Of a DNA stretch of 30,977 nt, positions 5,824-28,410 are shown piece after piece. The DNA comes from a virus (Duplodnaviria > Caudoviricetes). The DNA lies in the IMG/VR virus record IMGVR_UViG_3300006033_000083, positions 1 to 30,977 of that record, one strand, 5' to 3'. The position numbers were made by a program, and so were the translations under genes. How positions within the stretch are numbered: position 1 is the stretch's first letter; each line of letters starts with the position of its first letter. The notes below the pieces were generated by a model. That model had not been told where the DNA came from. It made no database searches and saw only the letters and a program-made list of their open reading frames with translations.

Positions 5824-5882
5824 GTTCAGAATATCCTGCGTTGTGAGCGCGCTTCTTGTTTGATATGTTGAGATAATCGCAA
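5824..5882 (+). promoter_or_regulatory. Head-operon promoter: upstream box (5824-5843), -35 TTGTGA, -10 TATGTT (5864-5869), operator 5868-5882
   Basis: GTTCAGAATATCCTGCGTTG; 17-nt spacer; TTGAGATAATCGCAA whose last base is the A of ATG 5882. Confidence 0.7.
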
Positions 5883-11511: not shown

Positions 11512-11981
11512 GCTACCACCCACACTATGCAATCGTTCCGGCAACGGCTGAGTTCATTGAGCACGTAATTGCAAATCTGCGCGATGACGATGCGGCTGAG
11601 GTGAAGGCACAATCTGGCATGCATCCGGCCATGGCTATTGGAACGAGTGTTGGCGCAAGCGAGCGCGTGTACGCTGGCCTTGTGGATGGCACAGCTATGT
11701 GCCTGTTCGGCGTTGCAACGGTTGATGGCCTTGATGGCGTTGGCTCGCCGTGGATGGTTGGCACTGACCTGGTGGTGAAACACCAGCGCAAATTCCTGCG
11801 TGAGTGTCACGGCGTTGTGGCTGATATGCTTGATGACTTTCGAGTGCTTGAGAACCACGTAGACGCGCGCAACACCACATCAATTCGCTGGCTTAGCTGG
11901 CTGGGTTTTGATATATTCGCAACAGTACCTCACGGCCCGTATGGGCTACCGTTCCACCCTTTCCGCATGGTGCGAGAGTAA
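11508..11981 (+). CDS. GNAT-fold protein (T7 gp13-like)
   Basis: LRDDDAAEV, LENHVDARNTTSIRWLSWLGF GNAT C-terminal motif; canonical position after nozzle. Confidence 0.8.
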   Translation: MSYHPHYAIVPATAEFIEHVIANLRDDDAAEVKAQSGMHPAMAIGTSVGASERVYAGLVDGTAMCLFGVATVDGLDGVGSPWMVGTDLVVKHQRKFLRECHGVVADMLDDFRVLENHVDARNTTSIRWLSWLGFDIFATVPHGPYGLPFHPFRMVRE

Positions 11982-11982
11982 A

Positions 11983-12561
11983 ATGTGCGTAGCAATGGCA
12001 ACCATTGGCATGATTGGCAGCATCGCTTCAACGGCGATGAGCGTCATGGGTTCTATTCAGCAGGGCAAGGCGGCGAAGGCACAAGCGAACTATCAGGCGC
12101 AGGTTGCGACGAACAATGCGAAGATTGCTGAGTGGCAGGCGCAGGATTCGGAAGCACGCGGCAAGATTGCTGAGAATGAGCAACGCGCGAAGGTGCGCCA
12201 GTTTGTTGGCGGCCAGCGTGCTGCGATTGGCGGTAGTGGGTTTGAATTTGGTGACGACACATCGCTTTCGCTACTTGGCGATGCTGCGGCAATGGGCGAG
12301 TACGATGCGCTGGTTATCCGCAACAACGCGGCTCGTGAAGCTTGGGGCTACCGCACGCAAGGCAGCAACTTTACTGCGCAGGCTGGTGCCTATGGCGCGG
12401 CTGGTAAGAACGCGATGACCTCTGCGTACATGACCGCTGGTGCTGACCTGCTTGGCGGGGCGAGCAAGTTCGCGACGCAGTACGGCAAAAGCAGCACAAC
12501 TCTACCGTGGCAGACTTCCGGCAACGTGAAGCCTTCGTGGATGGGTGGCGGATTCTACTAA
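11983..12561 (+). CDS. Internal virion (ejection) protein, T7 gp14-like, starts MCVAMATIG
   Basis: Met-Cys start, Gly/Ala hydrophobic N-terminus, GGQRAAIGGSG, IRNNAAREAWGY motifs. Confidence 0.85.
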   Translation: MCVAMATIGMIGSIASTAMSVMGSIQQGKAAKAQANYQAQVATNNAKIAEWQAQDSEARGKIAENEQRAKVRQFVGGQRAAIGGSGFEFGDDTSLSLLGDAAAMGEYDALVIRNNAAREAWGYRTQGSNFTAQAGAYGAAGKNAMTSAYMTAGADLLGGASKFATQYGKSSTTLPWQTSGNVKPSWMGGGFY

Positions 12562-12590
12562 AAAAAATCCCCCGCCGAAGCGAGGGAAAA
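12560..12590 (-). terminator. Intrinsic terminator on minus strand
   Basis: Minus strand TCCCTCGC-TTCG-GCGGGGGA followed by a T run; C(UUCG)G tetraloop. Confidence 0.8.
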
Positions 12591-12611
12591 CCAAGAATAA
12601 AAGACACAGGT
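12560..12611 (-). ncRNA. Candidate small RNA of about 52 nt, antisense to the late operon
   Basis: Minus-strand promoter TTGCTA (12646-12641)-17 nt-TATTCT (12623-12618) with extended TG; predicted +1 A at 12611; ends at the terminator. Confidence 0.5.
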
Positions 12612-12614
12612 GCA

Positions 12615-12629
12615 TTGAGAATAACACAA
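12615..12629. promoter_or_regulatory. Palindromic operator variant TTGAGAATAACACAA
   Basis: Matches the repeated 15-mer; overlaps the -10 of the minus-strand promoter. Confidence 0.6.
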
Positions 12630-12646
12630 TACCGGGTGAGTAGCAA

Positions 12647-14896
12647 GTGCCAAGAGTGCCGACATATGACCAGCCGCAAGCGAATGTTGCCGCGCTTCCC
12701 GGCGTTCGCCAGTCGATTGATGCGCCGGCAGCAGCTTTCGGCGTAGACACGCGCGCTGCGTCAGCAAGCCTTGCGCGTACATCGGCCATGCTTGATCGCT
12801 ATGCGGCGAAGAAGGCTGAAGAGGATGCCGAGGCTGCTGCATGGAACGCATACACACAATTCTCGAACGAGCAACGCGATTATCTGTACGGGCCTGAGAA
12901 GGGCTTATTCAACGCTAAGGGCGGCAATGCAATGGGCATCGCTGGCCGTGGCGCAAGCGAACTTGGCACCATGGCGCAAAAGATCAGCAGCACGTTGCCC
13001 GAGGCCGCGCGCATTAAGTTCGACTCGCTCTACCGCCGCCAGCTTGATGGCACGCTTGACAGCCTGTCGCGCCACGAGTCGGCTGAGCGTCGCTCGTTTT
13101 TTGAACAAACGGCCAAAGGCGTTGTGACTGGCGCAGCGAATGACGCGGCTGTGAACTACAACAACCCGAAATACATCGAAGCATCTGCCGACCTTGCGGT
13201 GATGGCGATGCGCCAGAACCTAGCCATGAGTGGCACCGCGCCCGAGCTTGTCGAAGCTCAGGTTGCTGCAACGCGCTCAGGCATTTGGCGTGCGGCTGTC
13301 ACGAGCGCAATTAAAGCCAACCCACTTGAGGCAAAGGCGCTGCTTGACGCAAACCGCGACAAGATGACCGCTGAAGATGCTGTTGCGTTGGAAACCGCGC
13401 TGAAGACGCCGCTGAAAGTAGCGCAGGCCAGTGCGGATACGGCCATTGCAACTCAGCGCGTTCGCTCGTCGTTGCCAGCTAATATCTCGCAGGGCATCGC
13501 GGCTGAGGCGCAGGCGCAGAATGTTGATGTCAGCGTGGCCATGACCATCGCAAACCTTGAGAATGCCAAGGGCGACCCGAACGCAAAGAACCCGAACTCT
13601 TCGGCGCGGGGCATTTATCAATTCATCGACGGCACGTGGAAAGCTATGGGCGGCACTGATGCTGACCGTGGCGACACTGGCAAGCAGATCGAGCTAGGCA
13701 TTCGCCACATCAAAGATAACCAGCAGAAGCTGACCGCGCAGCTTGGCCGCCCGCCTGCCGGTTGGGAGGTGTACCTTGCGCACCAGCAGGGCATCGGCGG
13801 GGCATCGGCGCTTCTGTCTGCCGCACCAGGTGAGCGTGCGGTTGATGCTTTGGCGCGTGCACTCAAGTCGCCCGAGAAAGCGGCGATGGCTGTTGTGAAT
13901 AACGGCGGCGACGTGAATATGAGCGCGCAACAATTCGCGAAGATGTGGGAGAAGAAATACAACGCGCGTGCGACGGGCGGCACCGAGATGACGCTTGCCG
14001 AAAGCCTGACGGTGGTGAAAGCGCTGGCGAACGGCGACCCCGAGCGTGAGGCTGCTGCTGTTGCTCAGGTAACAGCGCATTACGCGACGATGAAGAAGAT
14101 CAAAGAAGACGAGCAAGACGCCGCTGAGATGGAAGTCTATGACCACATCAACAAGACCGGCGGTATCGCCGGGGCACCTGCTGCCGCCCTGTCGAAGCTC
14201 GACCCGAAAACGCTTTACAGCATCCAGAAGTCGGTGAAGACGGAAACTGACTGGGAATATTACGACAGCTATATGGCGAAGACGCCTGCGGAAAAAGCTG
14301 TGGTGCCTGTGAGTGAGCTGCGTTCTAAGCTTTCCCCGACCTTAATGAAAGCAGCAATCGACGAGCGCGCTGAAGCTCGCAACGGCGGTGGCACAAAGCA
14401 GCCTTGGCTTGAGCAACGCGCGACGATCATGAAAACATTCGCGGCTGAGGCTGGCATTGTGTCTGGCAGCAGCACCGACTGGTCTGAAGGTCAGCGCAAG
14501 CAATACAACGCTCTTGCGCAATACATGCATGGCCGCATGCAGGAATACCGCGATGTAAACGGCAAAGAGATGCCTGAGAGCGACTTCCGGCGCGAGGCCG
14601 CAAAGGCGGTGTCGAAAGTCTATATTGATAACAGCAACCAAAGCCGTGGTCTTTTTGGCGGGCTGTTCACTGGCCTGCTGTCCTCGGGCGCGGTCTACGG
14701 GTTTGAAACCGGTGGCCGTGAGATCACTGAAGTCAAGCAGCTCCCTGAATCTGCGCGGCTTGATATTGAGGCCACACTGCGCAAACGCGGCAAGGCAGTG
14801 ACCGACGAGGCTGTGCTCGCTGTAGCGCGCCCGCTGCTGACTGGCCGCAAAGACCTTATCCTAAAAGCTATCGACGGAATCCCGAATGCAAACTGA
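12647..14896 (+). CDS. Internal virion (ejection) protein with lytic transglycosylase domain
   Basis: MPRVPTY start; SLT motifs IANLENA (catalytic Glu about aa 305), ARGIYQFIDGTW, YLAHQQG at about 13480-13970. Confidence 0.85.
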   Translation: MPRVPTYDQPQANVAALPGVRQSIDAPAAAFGVDTRAASASLARTSAMLDRYAAKKAEEDAEAAAWNAYTQFSNEQRDYLYGPEKGLFNAKGGNAMGIAGRGASELGTMAQKISSTLPEAARIKFDSLYRRQLDGTLDSLSRHESAERRSFFEQTAKGVVTGAANDAAVNYNNPKYIEASADLAVMAMRQNLAMSGTAPELVEAQVAATRSGIWRAAVTSAIKANPLEAKALLDANRDKMTAEDAVALETALKTPLKVAQASADTAIATQRVRSSLPANISQGIAAEAQAQNVDVSVAMTIANLENAKGDPNAKNPNSSARGIYQFIDGTWKAMGGTDADRGDTGKQIELGIRHIKDNQQKLTAQLGRPPAGWEVYLAHQQGIGGASALLSAAPGERAVDALARALKSPEKAAMAVVNNGGDVNMSAQQFAKMWEKKYNARATGGTEMTLAESLTVVKALANGDPEREAAAVAQVTAHYATMKKIKEDEQDAAEMEVYDHINKTGGIAGAPAAALSKLDPKTLYSIQKSVKTETDWEYYDSYMAKTPAEKAVVPVSELRSKLSPTLMKAAIDERAEARNGGGTKQPWLEQRATIMKTFAAEAGIVSGSSTDWSEGQRKQYNALAQYMHGRMQEYRDVNGKEMPESDFRREAAKAVSKVYIDNSNQSRGLFGGLFTGLLSSGAVYGFETGGREITEVKQLPESARLDIEATLRKRGKAVTDEAVLAVARPLLTGRKDLILKAIDGIPNAN

Positions 14897-27948: not shown

Positions 27949-28410
27949 ATGCGTAATTCATGGAAGGCGGCCTATGCCGCGGTGATTGCCTTGGCCACGC
28001 CGATGGTCGCGGGATGGGAGGGCTTACGTGTGCGCGCGTATCTCGACCCCGTTGGCATCCCCACCATTTGCTATGGGGAAACCGAGGGCGTGAAAATGGG
28101 CGACGTGAAGACAAAGGCTGAGTGCGACAAGATGCTGACCTTCAAGATGGCGTATCTCTCTTGGCGTGTGGATAACATTGTGATAATCTCAATGAAGCCG
28201 GAAACGCACGCGGCGATGGTGTCGTTCGTTTACAACGTAGGCGAGGGCGCATTCAAGCGTTCGACCTTGCTGAAGAAGCTGAACGCCGGCGACGTGGTTG
28301 GTGCGTGCATGGAGCTTGACCGGTGGACGTATGCCGGTGGGCGGCAACTGACCGGCCTTGTGAAGCGTCGCGCTGCTGAGCGTGACCTGTGCCTGAAAGG
28401 GGCTGTGTAA
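27949..28410 (+). CDS. Endolysin, GH24 lysozyme with probable SAR N-terminus
   Basis: Catalytic E-x8-D-x5-T (WEGLRVRAYLDPVGIPT), FVYNVG, GLVKRRAAE; Ala-rich weakly hydrophobic helix directly before the Glu. Confidence 0.92.
   Translation: MRNSWKAAYAAVIALATPMVAGWEGLRVRAYLDPVGIPTICYGETEGVKMGDVKTKAECDKMLTFKMAYLSWRVDNIVIISMKPETHAAMVSFVYNVGEGAFKRSTLLKKLNAGDVVGACMELDRWTYAGGRQLTGLVKRRAAERDLCLKGAV

Follow-up and report, generated by a model that had tools for sequence, protein, structure and literature searches.

A predicted antisense transcription unit between two ejection-protein genes of a temperate podophage

Why would a phage carry a promoter match and a terminator on the minus strand, between two late genes that are read from the plus strand? 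We asked this of one junction in the window, by which we mean the entire 30,977-nt stretch of DNA that was analyzed. Gene content identifies the window as the late half of a temperate podophage: it has terminase, portal, capsid and tail tube genes, T7-like gp13, gp14, gp15 and gp16 ejection genes, a tail fibre gene, lysis genes and an integrase. An overlapping record, which is identical across the shared stretch, contributes about 15 kb of early genes, for 46 kb of phage in total. The early region (L254) has genes for a candidate HTH repressor of 119 aa, a divergent Cro-like gene of 68 aa and, upstream of terS, an HTH gene of 66 aa. The top cultured relatives (Vibrio MZH0603, Pseudomonas Ab31-like phages, and BPP-1) are 41-43% identical in tail tube B, and a search with the integrase named no host.

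The junction is flanked by these features:

11983..12561, plus strand: gp14-like internal virion (ejection) protein gene, 192 aa (Pfam T7_gp14, 31.6 bits; cut-off 27)
12634..12640, plus strand: likely gp15 ribosome-binding site, from sequence; outside the reach of the 52-nt RNA
12647..14896, plus strand: gp15-like ejection protein gene with a muralytic-type domain, 749 aa (phrog_10475, phrog_4067)

The match of the first gene to phrog_418 (internal virion protein) came from a longer ORF, and the identity of the second as gp15 was assigned from gene order. An earlier note had proposed that a complete minus-strand unit for a small RNA lies between them. Its letters and positions are correct, including the promoter match, the predicted +1 (an A at 12611), the hairpin and the U tract. 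The elements are:

12618..12646, minus strand: sigma-70-type promoter match, TTGCTA-17-TATTCT with extended TG (sequence, matrix score)
12626..12653, minus strand: second, overlapping promoter match, TTGGCA-16-TATTGT, 9/12 (listed by the scanner; score 9.9)
12613..12631, no strand assigned: 19-bp imperfect palindrome copy, presumed repressor site over the antisense -10 (about 20 sites in the phage)
12560..12611, minus strand: predicted 52-nt non-coding RNA (sequence, fold; block missing from the relative L110)
12588..12611, minus strand: single-stranded U-rich 5' half of the predicted RNA (fold)
12560..12587, minus strand: intrinsic terminator with an 8-bp stem, UUCG loop and U8 (hairpin 12587-12568, U8 12567-12560)

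A terminator and a promoter match on the minus strand

The terminator is strong, and its hairpin is built for the minus strand, with a U.G pair, a cUUCGg loop and a U tract present on that strand alone. The TAA of the gp14-like gene overlaps this U tract. By our strict test it is the only minus-strand terminator in the 46 kb of phage; the plus strand gives three weaker ones. The test is conservative, because a plausible plus-strand terminator in L110 escaped it. Terminator-like sites listed by the scanner are about as common in the window (30 sites) as in shuffles (16 vs. 17.0 and 14 vs. 14.6), and a U8 tail is unique to the site at 12560..12587 among these 30.

As had been claimed, the predicted 52-nt RNA is essentially open in its 5' half and then forms one 8-bp hairpin (-15.2 kcal/mol, z = -2.96). 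We rejected a small minus-strand protein, as the frames run on through the terminator and none ends before the hairpin. With its terminator, no reading frame and, as a sequence match, its own promoter on the opposite strand, the predicted RNA shares these three features with cis-encoded phage antisense RNAs of the OOP/Sar kind.

Covariance models from Rfam gave no match in the window at the gathering score. The Rfam check of the RNA that the earlier note had suggested did not place it in a family: there were five terminator-driven matches at E up to 10, far under gathering, and OOP, Sar and others were not matched. No homologue was found in Rfam or by sequence searches, including IMG/VR, where 18 nt of the 5' half were found only in this phage and in four unrelated contexts without the hairpin. 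We found no publications on this gp14/gp15 junction or its RNA, in a search that was mostly without subscription papers and hence weak.

On the minus strand, the promoter match consists of the -35 (TTGCTA, 12646-12641), which abuts the gp15 start codon, a 17-nt spacer, the TG (12626-12625) and the -10 (TATTCT, 12623-12618). To call it near-consensus was an overstatement: the elements are present, with the extended TG, but the match is 8/12 plus TG and is under the scanner's cut-off. With a matrix built on generic consensus frequencies, it scores 11.0 and is the sole minus-strand site of at least 11 in the window. By itself this score is unexceptional, because the window has four such sites on both strands together and shuffles have 3.46. 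What stands out is its place, 52 nt upstream of the end of the terminator: 45 of 5,000 local dinucleotide shuffles reached its score, as did 102 of 5,000 if the palindrome was held fixed. In other words, the pairing of promoter and terminator exceeds chance, at about 1-2%. The second, overlapping match would yield an RNA of about 60 nt. A plus-strand promoter from the palindrome copy at 12613 was rejected (no -10 follows, and the score is 2.1).

A close relative has the promoter match without the predicted RNA body

Viral and metagenome scans with alignment A1 gave matches listed from 39 of 64 and 56 of 64 parts. Among these matches there is one close relative, L110, with 61% identity in gp14, 72% in tube B and 46% in gp15. 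Its junction aligns with that of this phage across the palindrome, the ribosome-binding site and the start codon. The earlier note had tied its proposal to conservation of the promoter, and in L110 this holds: the antisense promoter recurs at the same place on its minus strand, and there it is stronger (TCGATA-17-TATAAT with TG). What L110 lacks is the stretch between the gp14 stop and the palindrome, and this corresponds nearly exactly to the predicted transcript, terminator included. Since L110 keeps the promoter without the RNA body, the promoter's position is common to both phages and the RNA is not. And because the body and terminator are missing in L110 and no homologue was found, the RNA has no support from conservation or covariation. 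So for the regulated sRNA that had been proposed, the promoter-terminator unit under a palindrome is supported, but the body of the RNA is not conserved. Judging from the DNA, the antisense promoter-terminator unit is real, non-random, lineage-specific and of a known kind, and its function we infer.

The gp14-like sequence L111 (56%) ends at the gp14 stop, and close gp14 homologues are also present on 44-48 kb contigs, outside the junction comparison. Scans with P0012 and P0013 gave no closer relatives, and a scan with the tail-tube B protein gave its own copy only. There was no closer relative among 83 genomes of one alphaproteobacterial order (five matches, at 42-46%), and scans for the palindrome pattern (142 loci) gave no new relative at the gp14/gp15 junction.

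A palindrome covers the antisense -10

The -10 had been described as covered by an operator copy. A palindrome does cover it, but this copy is weak, with five mismatches to the consensus. At up to four mismatches there are six copies, versus 0.08 in shuffles, for a consensus that was derived from the copies themselves. A matrix built without the 12613 copy gives that copy 17.7 bits in the plus orientation (11.8 in minus) and finds 26 sites in the 46 kb, of which we examined 21, dropping five weak in-gene hits. Most of the late-region copies are immediately upstream of gene starts, and in four of them the left half is the -35 of a plus-strand promoter match. At the early promoters, it is the -10 that the palindrome covers, and one of them has the register seen at 12613 (-10 at palindrome position 9).

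Mycobacteriophage L5 has more than 20 repressor sites over promoters and in short intergenic spaces, oriented with transcription (PMC9283540). The L5 operators and stoperators are asymmetric 13-mers that are bound by a monomer, whereas here we have imperfect 19-bp palindromes that are putative sites (PMC9283540). We liken the palindrome network to the stoperator type, in a proteobacterial podophage, with the three HTH candidates (119, 68 and 66 aa) as the putative binder.

The palindrome might be all that matters here. If the local promoter is inactive, then this copy would be one of many sites that block elongation or promoters, and the terminator would stop distal antisense read-through. Most copies are just ahead of plus-strand late genes, and the one at 12613 is better in the plus orientation, which is reminiscent of the L5 stoperators (PMC9283540). 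The palindrome itself provides the TG and a -10-like core, and the promoter match is one that the scanner's cut-off would omit. However, the -35 lies outside the palindrome and yet fits (the 102 of 5,000 shuffles above). None of the 10 other late-region copies has a minus-strand promoter of at least 9.5, so the antisense promoter is not a routine by-product of the palindrome. Also, the antisense promoter that L110 has at this position is stronger, and the late region is without any other strict minus-strand terminator that might serve as a guard. We give an inactive promoter little credence.

Copies of the palindrome lie at 109, 2296, 5866, 8571, 11906, 12613, 22490, 26375, 28176, 28460 and 30958 of the window, and there are further copies in the L254 early region. 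The palindrome-like copy at 11906-11924, in the coding end of gp13, has a counterpart at L110:5236-5250 and so is kept in both phages; it lies about 60-75 nt before the gp14 start and contains a plus-strand extended -10-like core. Inside the endolysin gene, the copy at 28176-28194 covers the -10 of a promoter match on the plus strand (score 10.3), and the spanin genes are downstream of it. A second repeated 16-mer, at about 2255-2275 and 5825-5845 of the window, is 20-35 nt upstream of two palindrome copies. At the end of the L254 contig (L254:15670-15739), a long near-perfect inverted repeat is centred on a palindrome copy; it may have arisen in assembly, as an artefact, or by duplication of an early promoter unit.

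The gp14/gp15 junction is a slot for small reverse genes

To compare junctions across phages, we took 208 distinct gp14 junctions from 246 loci, among the matches listed. A gp15 start was called in 183 of the 208, using a profile based on 139 of these loci. In these 183, the gap between gp14 and gp15 is at most 30 nt for 156, 31-120 nt for 9, and longer for 18. A minus-strand ORF ends close to the gp14 stop in 12 of the 18 long junctions, with a lipoprotein signal in five, and four further lipoprotein-type ORFs (L118, L121, L122 and L195) come from the 25 junctions in which no gp15 start was called. Four of 10 junction proteins that we scanned match phrog_3716, one of them weakly. Small reverse-strand lipoprotein genes lie between ejection genes in L055, L134, L196 and L227, and also in L046, L118, L121, L122, L195, L210 and L240. 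The junction lipoproteins, several of which belong to one uncharacterised family (phrog_3716), are candidates for superinfection exclusion. Overall, as judged from these genomes, phages of this group repeatedly use the gp14/gp15 junction as a slot for small genes on the reverse strand. This comparative result, with its phrog_3716 lipoproteins, holds independently of the RNA.

Counting loci that are not independent, and ignoring kinship, a minus-strand promoter match of at least 6.5 is present at the gp15 start of 8 of the 12 gene-bearing junctions, as compared to 18 of the 156 tight ones. At a threshold of at least 11, a match remains in 2 of the 12 gene-bearing junctions, which are near-identical loci, and in none of the 156 tight ones; among the 9 short gaps it is present in 2, namely this phage and L110. 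A strict minus-strand terminator is found at 2 of the 208 junctions, one of which is this phage. At the gp14 stop, a clean U-tract terminator is missing from all of the gene-bearing loci that we examined.

Because the slot carries protein genes in relatives, the promoter and terminator may be leftovers. The unit would then be an emptied accessory-gene (moron) slot that has lost its reverse gene; a short RNA may still be made, but it would be inert, and the terminator would merely shield gp14 from antisense transcription. We consider this a close rival, possible though on balance doubtful. It draws on the reverse-strand ORFs in 12 of the 18 long junctions, lipoprotein types among them, on the promoter matches of at least 6.5 at the gp15 start (8/12 vs. 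18/156), and on L110, where there is a promoter without cargo, as well as on the lack of a homologue for the RNA. But the promoter and terminator show no decay in this phage, and the 24 nt from the +1 to the hairpin contain no visible remnant of a gene. The gene-bearing loci are distant (33-46% identity in gp14) and not independent of each other, and because those examined are without a clean U-tract terminator, the terminator is not a standard part of the slot.

The slot might also have swapped its membrane-lipoprotein cargo for a 52-nt RNA directed at the ejection machinery, which would cleave the late message in cis and block the gp15 start codon via a second, imperfect pairing site (described below). 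This elaborate version seems quite improbable. If true, the RNA would set the dose of ejection proteins or cripple a superinfecting sibling.

What the RNA could pair with

In cis, the predicted RNA would form a perfect duplex (-96.5 kcal/mol) with the A-rich and mostly unpaired leader of the late mRNA. The plus-strand target of its 5' half has a mean unpaired probability of 0.79 and is 35 nt upstream of the gp15 start. The duplex covers the intercistronic leader and 2 nt of the gp14 stop, leaving 22 nt to the likely gp15 ribosome-binding site, whose predicted accessibility is unaltered by the pairing (0.15 to 0.16).

We also noticed a second site, whose choice was post hoc:

12649..12666, plus strand: possible second pairing site for nt 4-22 of the RNA, in the first gp15 codons (-18.3 kcal/mol)

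This duplex has 16 bp, with four G.U pairs and a 3x2 loop, and the gain from cofolding is -11.3 kcal/mol. The site ranks second among 61 start regions and first among 183 gp15 starts. Just 4 of 3,072 synonymous codon sets are as strong as the native site, and 14 of 560 plus-strand windows pair as well. Shuffled seeds pair as well in 60-116 of 3,000 cases if bases are shuffled and in 138-315 of 3,000 if dinucleotides are shuffled, so these nulls are at 2-10%. With shuffled seeds, the native codons still come out on top in 19 and 31 of 400 trials (5-8%), and both the rank and the energy are equalled in 0 and 6 of 400. (We set aside another synonymous-codon null, at 0 of 3,000, because it was skewed by the codon usage of the whole gene, and used the shuffled-seed control instead.) These comparisons make a second pairing site over the gp15 start codon suggestive only. 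The site could instead be a decayed duplicate of the gp15 5' end, which would give the same appearance.

Does the RNA act in trans? The open 5' half, the U run ahead of the hairpin and the U8 tail would suit an Hfq-type sRNA that pairs with mRNAs of the host (or other mRNAs of the phage) via its U-rich 5' half; Hfq-binding sRNAs have seven or more terminal U (PMC5558911), and here the RNA is U-rich and has eight. Also, the RNA has its own promoter and terminator at a place where relatives hold host-facing accessory genes. But there is no good target in the phage besides the cis one: across the 46 kb, the best non-cis duplex is at -22 kcal/mol, away from gene starts, and is not beyond shuffles. 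Across the 61 start regions, shuffled seeds match the pairing of the RNA in 391 and 172 of 500 trials. Nor is the seed conserved, in either L110 or IMG/VR. Going by targets in the phage and by the seed, we think that an Hfq-type role in trans is unlikely. An anti-RBS role, in which the 5' CCUGUGU would target the ACAGG before some early genes, was rejected, since only one of five other ACACAGG sites is at a gene start and the pairing to start regions is no better than for shuffles.

A cis-antisense RNA as the leading explanation

Our leading explanation, which we hold tentatively and at somewhat short of an even bet, is that the minus-strand unit makes a lineage-specific 52-nt cis-antisense RNA, of the OOP/Sar kind, that lowers the expression of gp15. 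The expression of gp16 would probably be lowered as well. The terminator, the promoter match and the palindrome are seen in the DNA, and L110 retains the palindrome and the antisense promoter, not the RNA body. From there, we propose that a phage HTH protein would bind the palindrome and shut the antisense promoter, as at the early promoters. Because this protein would close the promoter, the RNA would be phase-controlled. Once the promoter is open, action in cis is plausible: the RNA would form a 52-bp perfect duplex with the A-rich intercistronic part of the late message. The duplex might invite cleavage by RNase III, as for lambda OOP, and mask what is likely a ribosome-loading leader, and convergent transcription may contribute interference. 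A second molecule of the RNA may perhaps pair over the gp15 start codon. The terminator would bar antisense transcription from gp14 and the genes upstream. That the promoter is kept and the terminator is intact argues for selection.

How podophages keep ejection proteins at low copy numbers, when a single long late message encodes them, is little understood. If an antisense RNA under repressor control does act at the gp14/gp15 boundary, it would offer a modest answer that can be tested.

Comparison to known systems

The predicted RNA is a single-lineage prediction of a familiar kind: we liken it to OOP and Sar in its working, and it is a member of neither family. OOP of phage lambda is a 77-nt RNA that acts via RNase III decay of the sense message (PMC5415839), and the OOP of P22 is called at 63 nt (PMC5415839, PMC12197685, PMC13397905). 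OOP is likewise a short cis-antisense RNA with its own promoter and with a hairpin and U run at its end, but it overlaps the end of the cII coding sequence, in an early operon, and is conserved among lambdoid phages. The predicted RNA lies between two late ejection genes, touches just the stop codon of gp14, and has no known homologue.

Sar covers the ribosome-binding site of ant. The perfect duplex predicted here, in contrast, leaves a distance of 22 nt to the gp15 site, and it would target a virion protein instead of an antirepressor. The likeness is that Sar of P22 is also a small intergenic antisense RNA, one that represses its neighbour gene (PMC13397905, PMC12197685). Another temperate podophage, BTP1, has an RNA (STnc6030) that is antisense to a DNA-injection gene region, and such an RNA can block phage (PMC7067206). 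STnc6030 is about 500-786 nt, is highly expressed in the lysogen, and overlaps coding sequence, while the predicted RNA is 52 nt and intergenic, with its -10 under a presumed repressor site.

Phage morons have their own promoter and terminator and are inserted between late genes, on the opposite strand. Our unit, too, has a self-contained promoter and terminator between late genes and is absent from relatives. Unlike morons, it has no ORF inside, so the cargo is missing, and its promoter is overlapped by a genome-wide palindrome. The layout of promoter and terminator is otherwise moron-like (PMC7067206), and relatives bear small reverse genes at the same junction.

Is the hairpin a mimic of a CRISPR repeat?

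The earlier note had also raised the idea of a crRNA mimic. An RNA anti-CRISPR of this type would mimic the type I-E repeat with its hairpin, be bound by Cas6e, and seed a dead Cas7 filament on the 5' half. The string GUUUU-CCC...GCGGGGG-AU does resemble I-E solitary repeats in the Racr table, in a comparison with 15 of its 234 I-E rows (PMC10651486). The predicted RNA also shares with Racrs and solitary repeats an intergenic and promoter-led position and a single GC-rich hairpin with a C run and a G run. Solitary repeats are often promoter-led, and a single-stranded stretch with a 3' hairpin supports a Cas7f filament (PMC10651486).

The details do not fit. Judged by eye, the stem has one pair more than in those 15 of 234 rows, the loop is UUCG, and a U8 replaces the 8-nt non-U handle, which is far below 90% identity. 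The stem length, loop and 3' handle all differ from a Racr, and the hairpin is a working-type terminator. The five Rfam matches at E up to 10 include no CRISPR-DR family, and four short pieces of the hairpin are in none of nine supplementary files, the repeat table included. Among 802 genomes from two proteobacterial classes, the hairpin pattern, at up to two mismatches, is found in 5 of the 401 from one class and 1 of the 401 from the other, as single copies with no array; this search is blind to ordinary I-E arrays and had no positive control. An annotated tail-fibre terminator of rV5-like phages matches 38 nt at 87%, which we also count against mimicry. Racrs and solitary repeats are recognized by a match to a known repeat with identity and coverage of 90% or more (PMC10651486). 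We found no such match to a type I-E repeat in Rfam, the published table and the 802 genomes. The proposal of a crRNA mimic failed against Rfam, the repeat table and the genome patterns, and we consider an RNA anti-CRISPR extremely improbable. Going by its sequence, the CRISPR likeness is that of a GC-rich terminator.

Other sequences at the junction

A few other junctions have distinctive content. In L135, the gap between gp14 and gp15 (164 nt) is free of ORFs, and its minus strand (L135:5380-5480) has a TATAAT and a hairpin followed by U6, with no sequence likeness to the unit in the window; this is possibly another, independent antisense RNA. Two alphaproteobacterial prophages have in common a non-coding stretch of about 55 nt right before the gp15 start (L187:7546-7630 and L192:10520-10602), with no promoter or terminator match. 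An 88-nt insertion flanked by inverted repeats is present at the junction in L058 (L058:10513-10600) and also in L152 and L168, and in the related L043 the gap is 11 nt. Finally, L128 and L129 have two tandem reverse-strand ORFs for small hydrophobic proteins (80 and 42 aa) at the junction, behind a TTGACA-16-TATAAT promoter.
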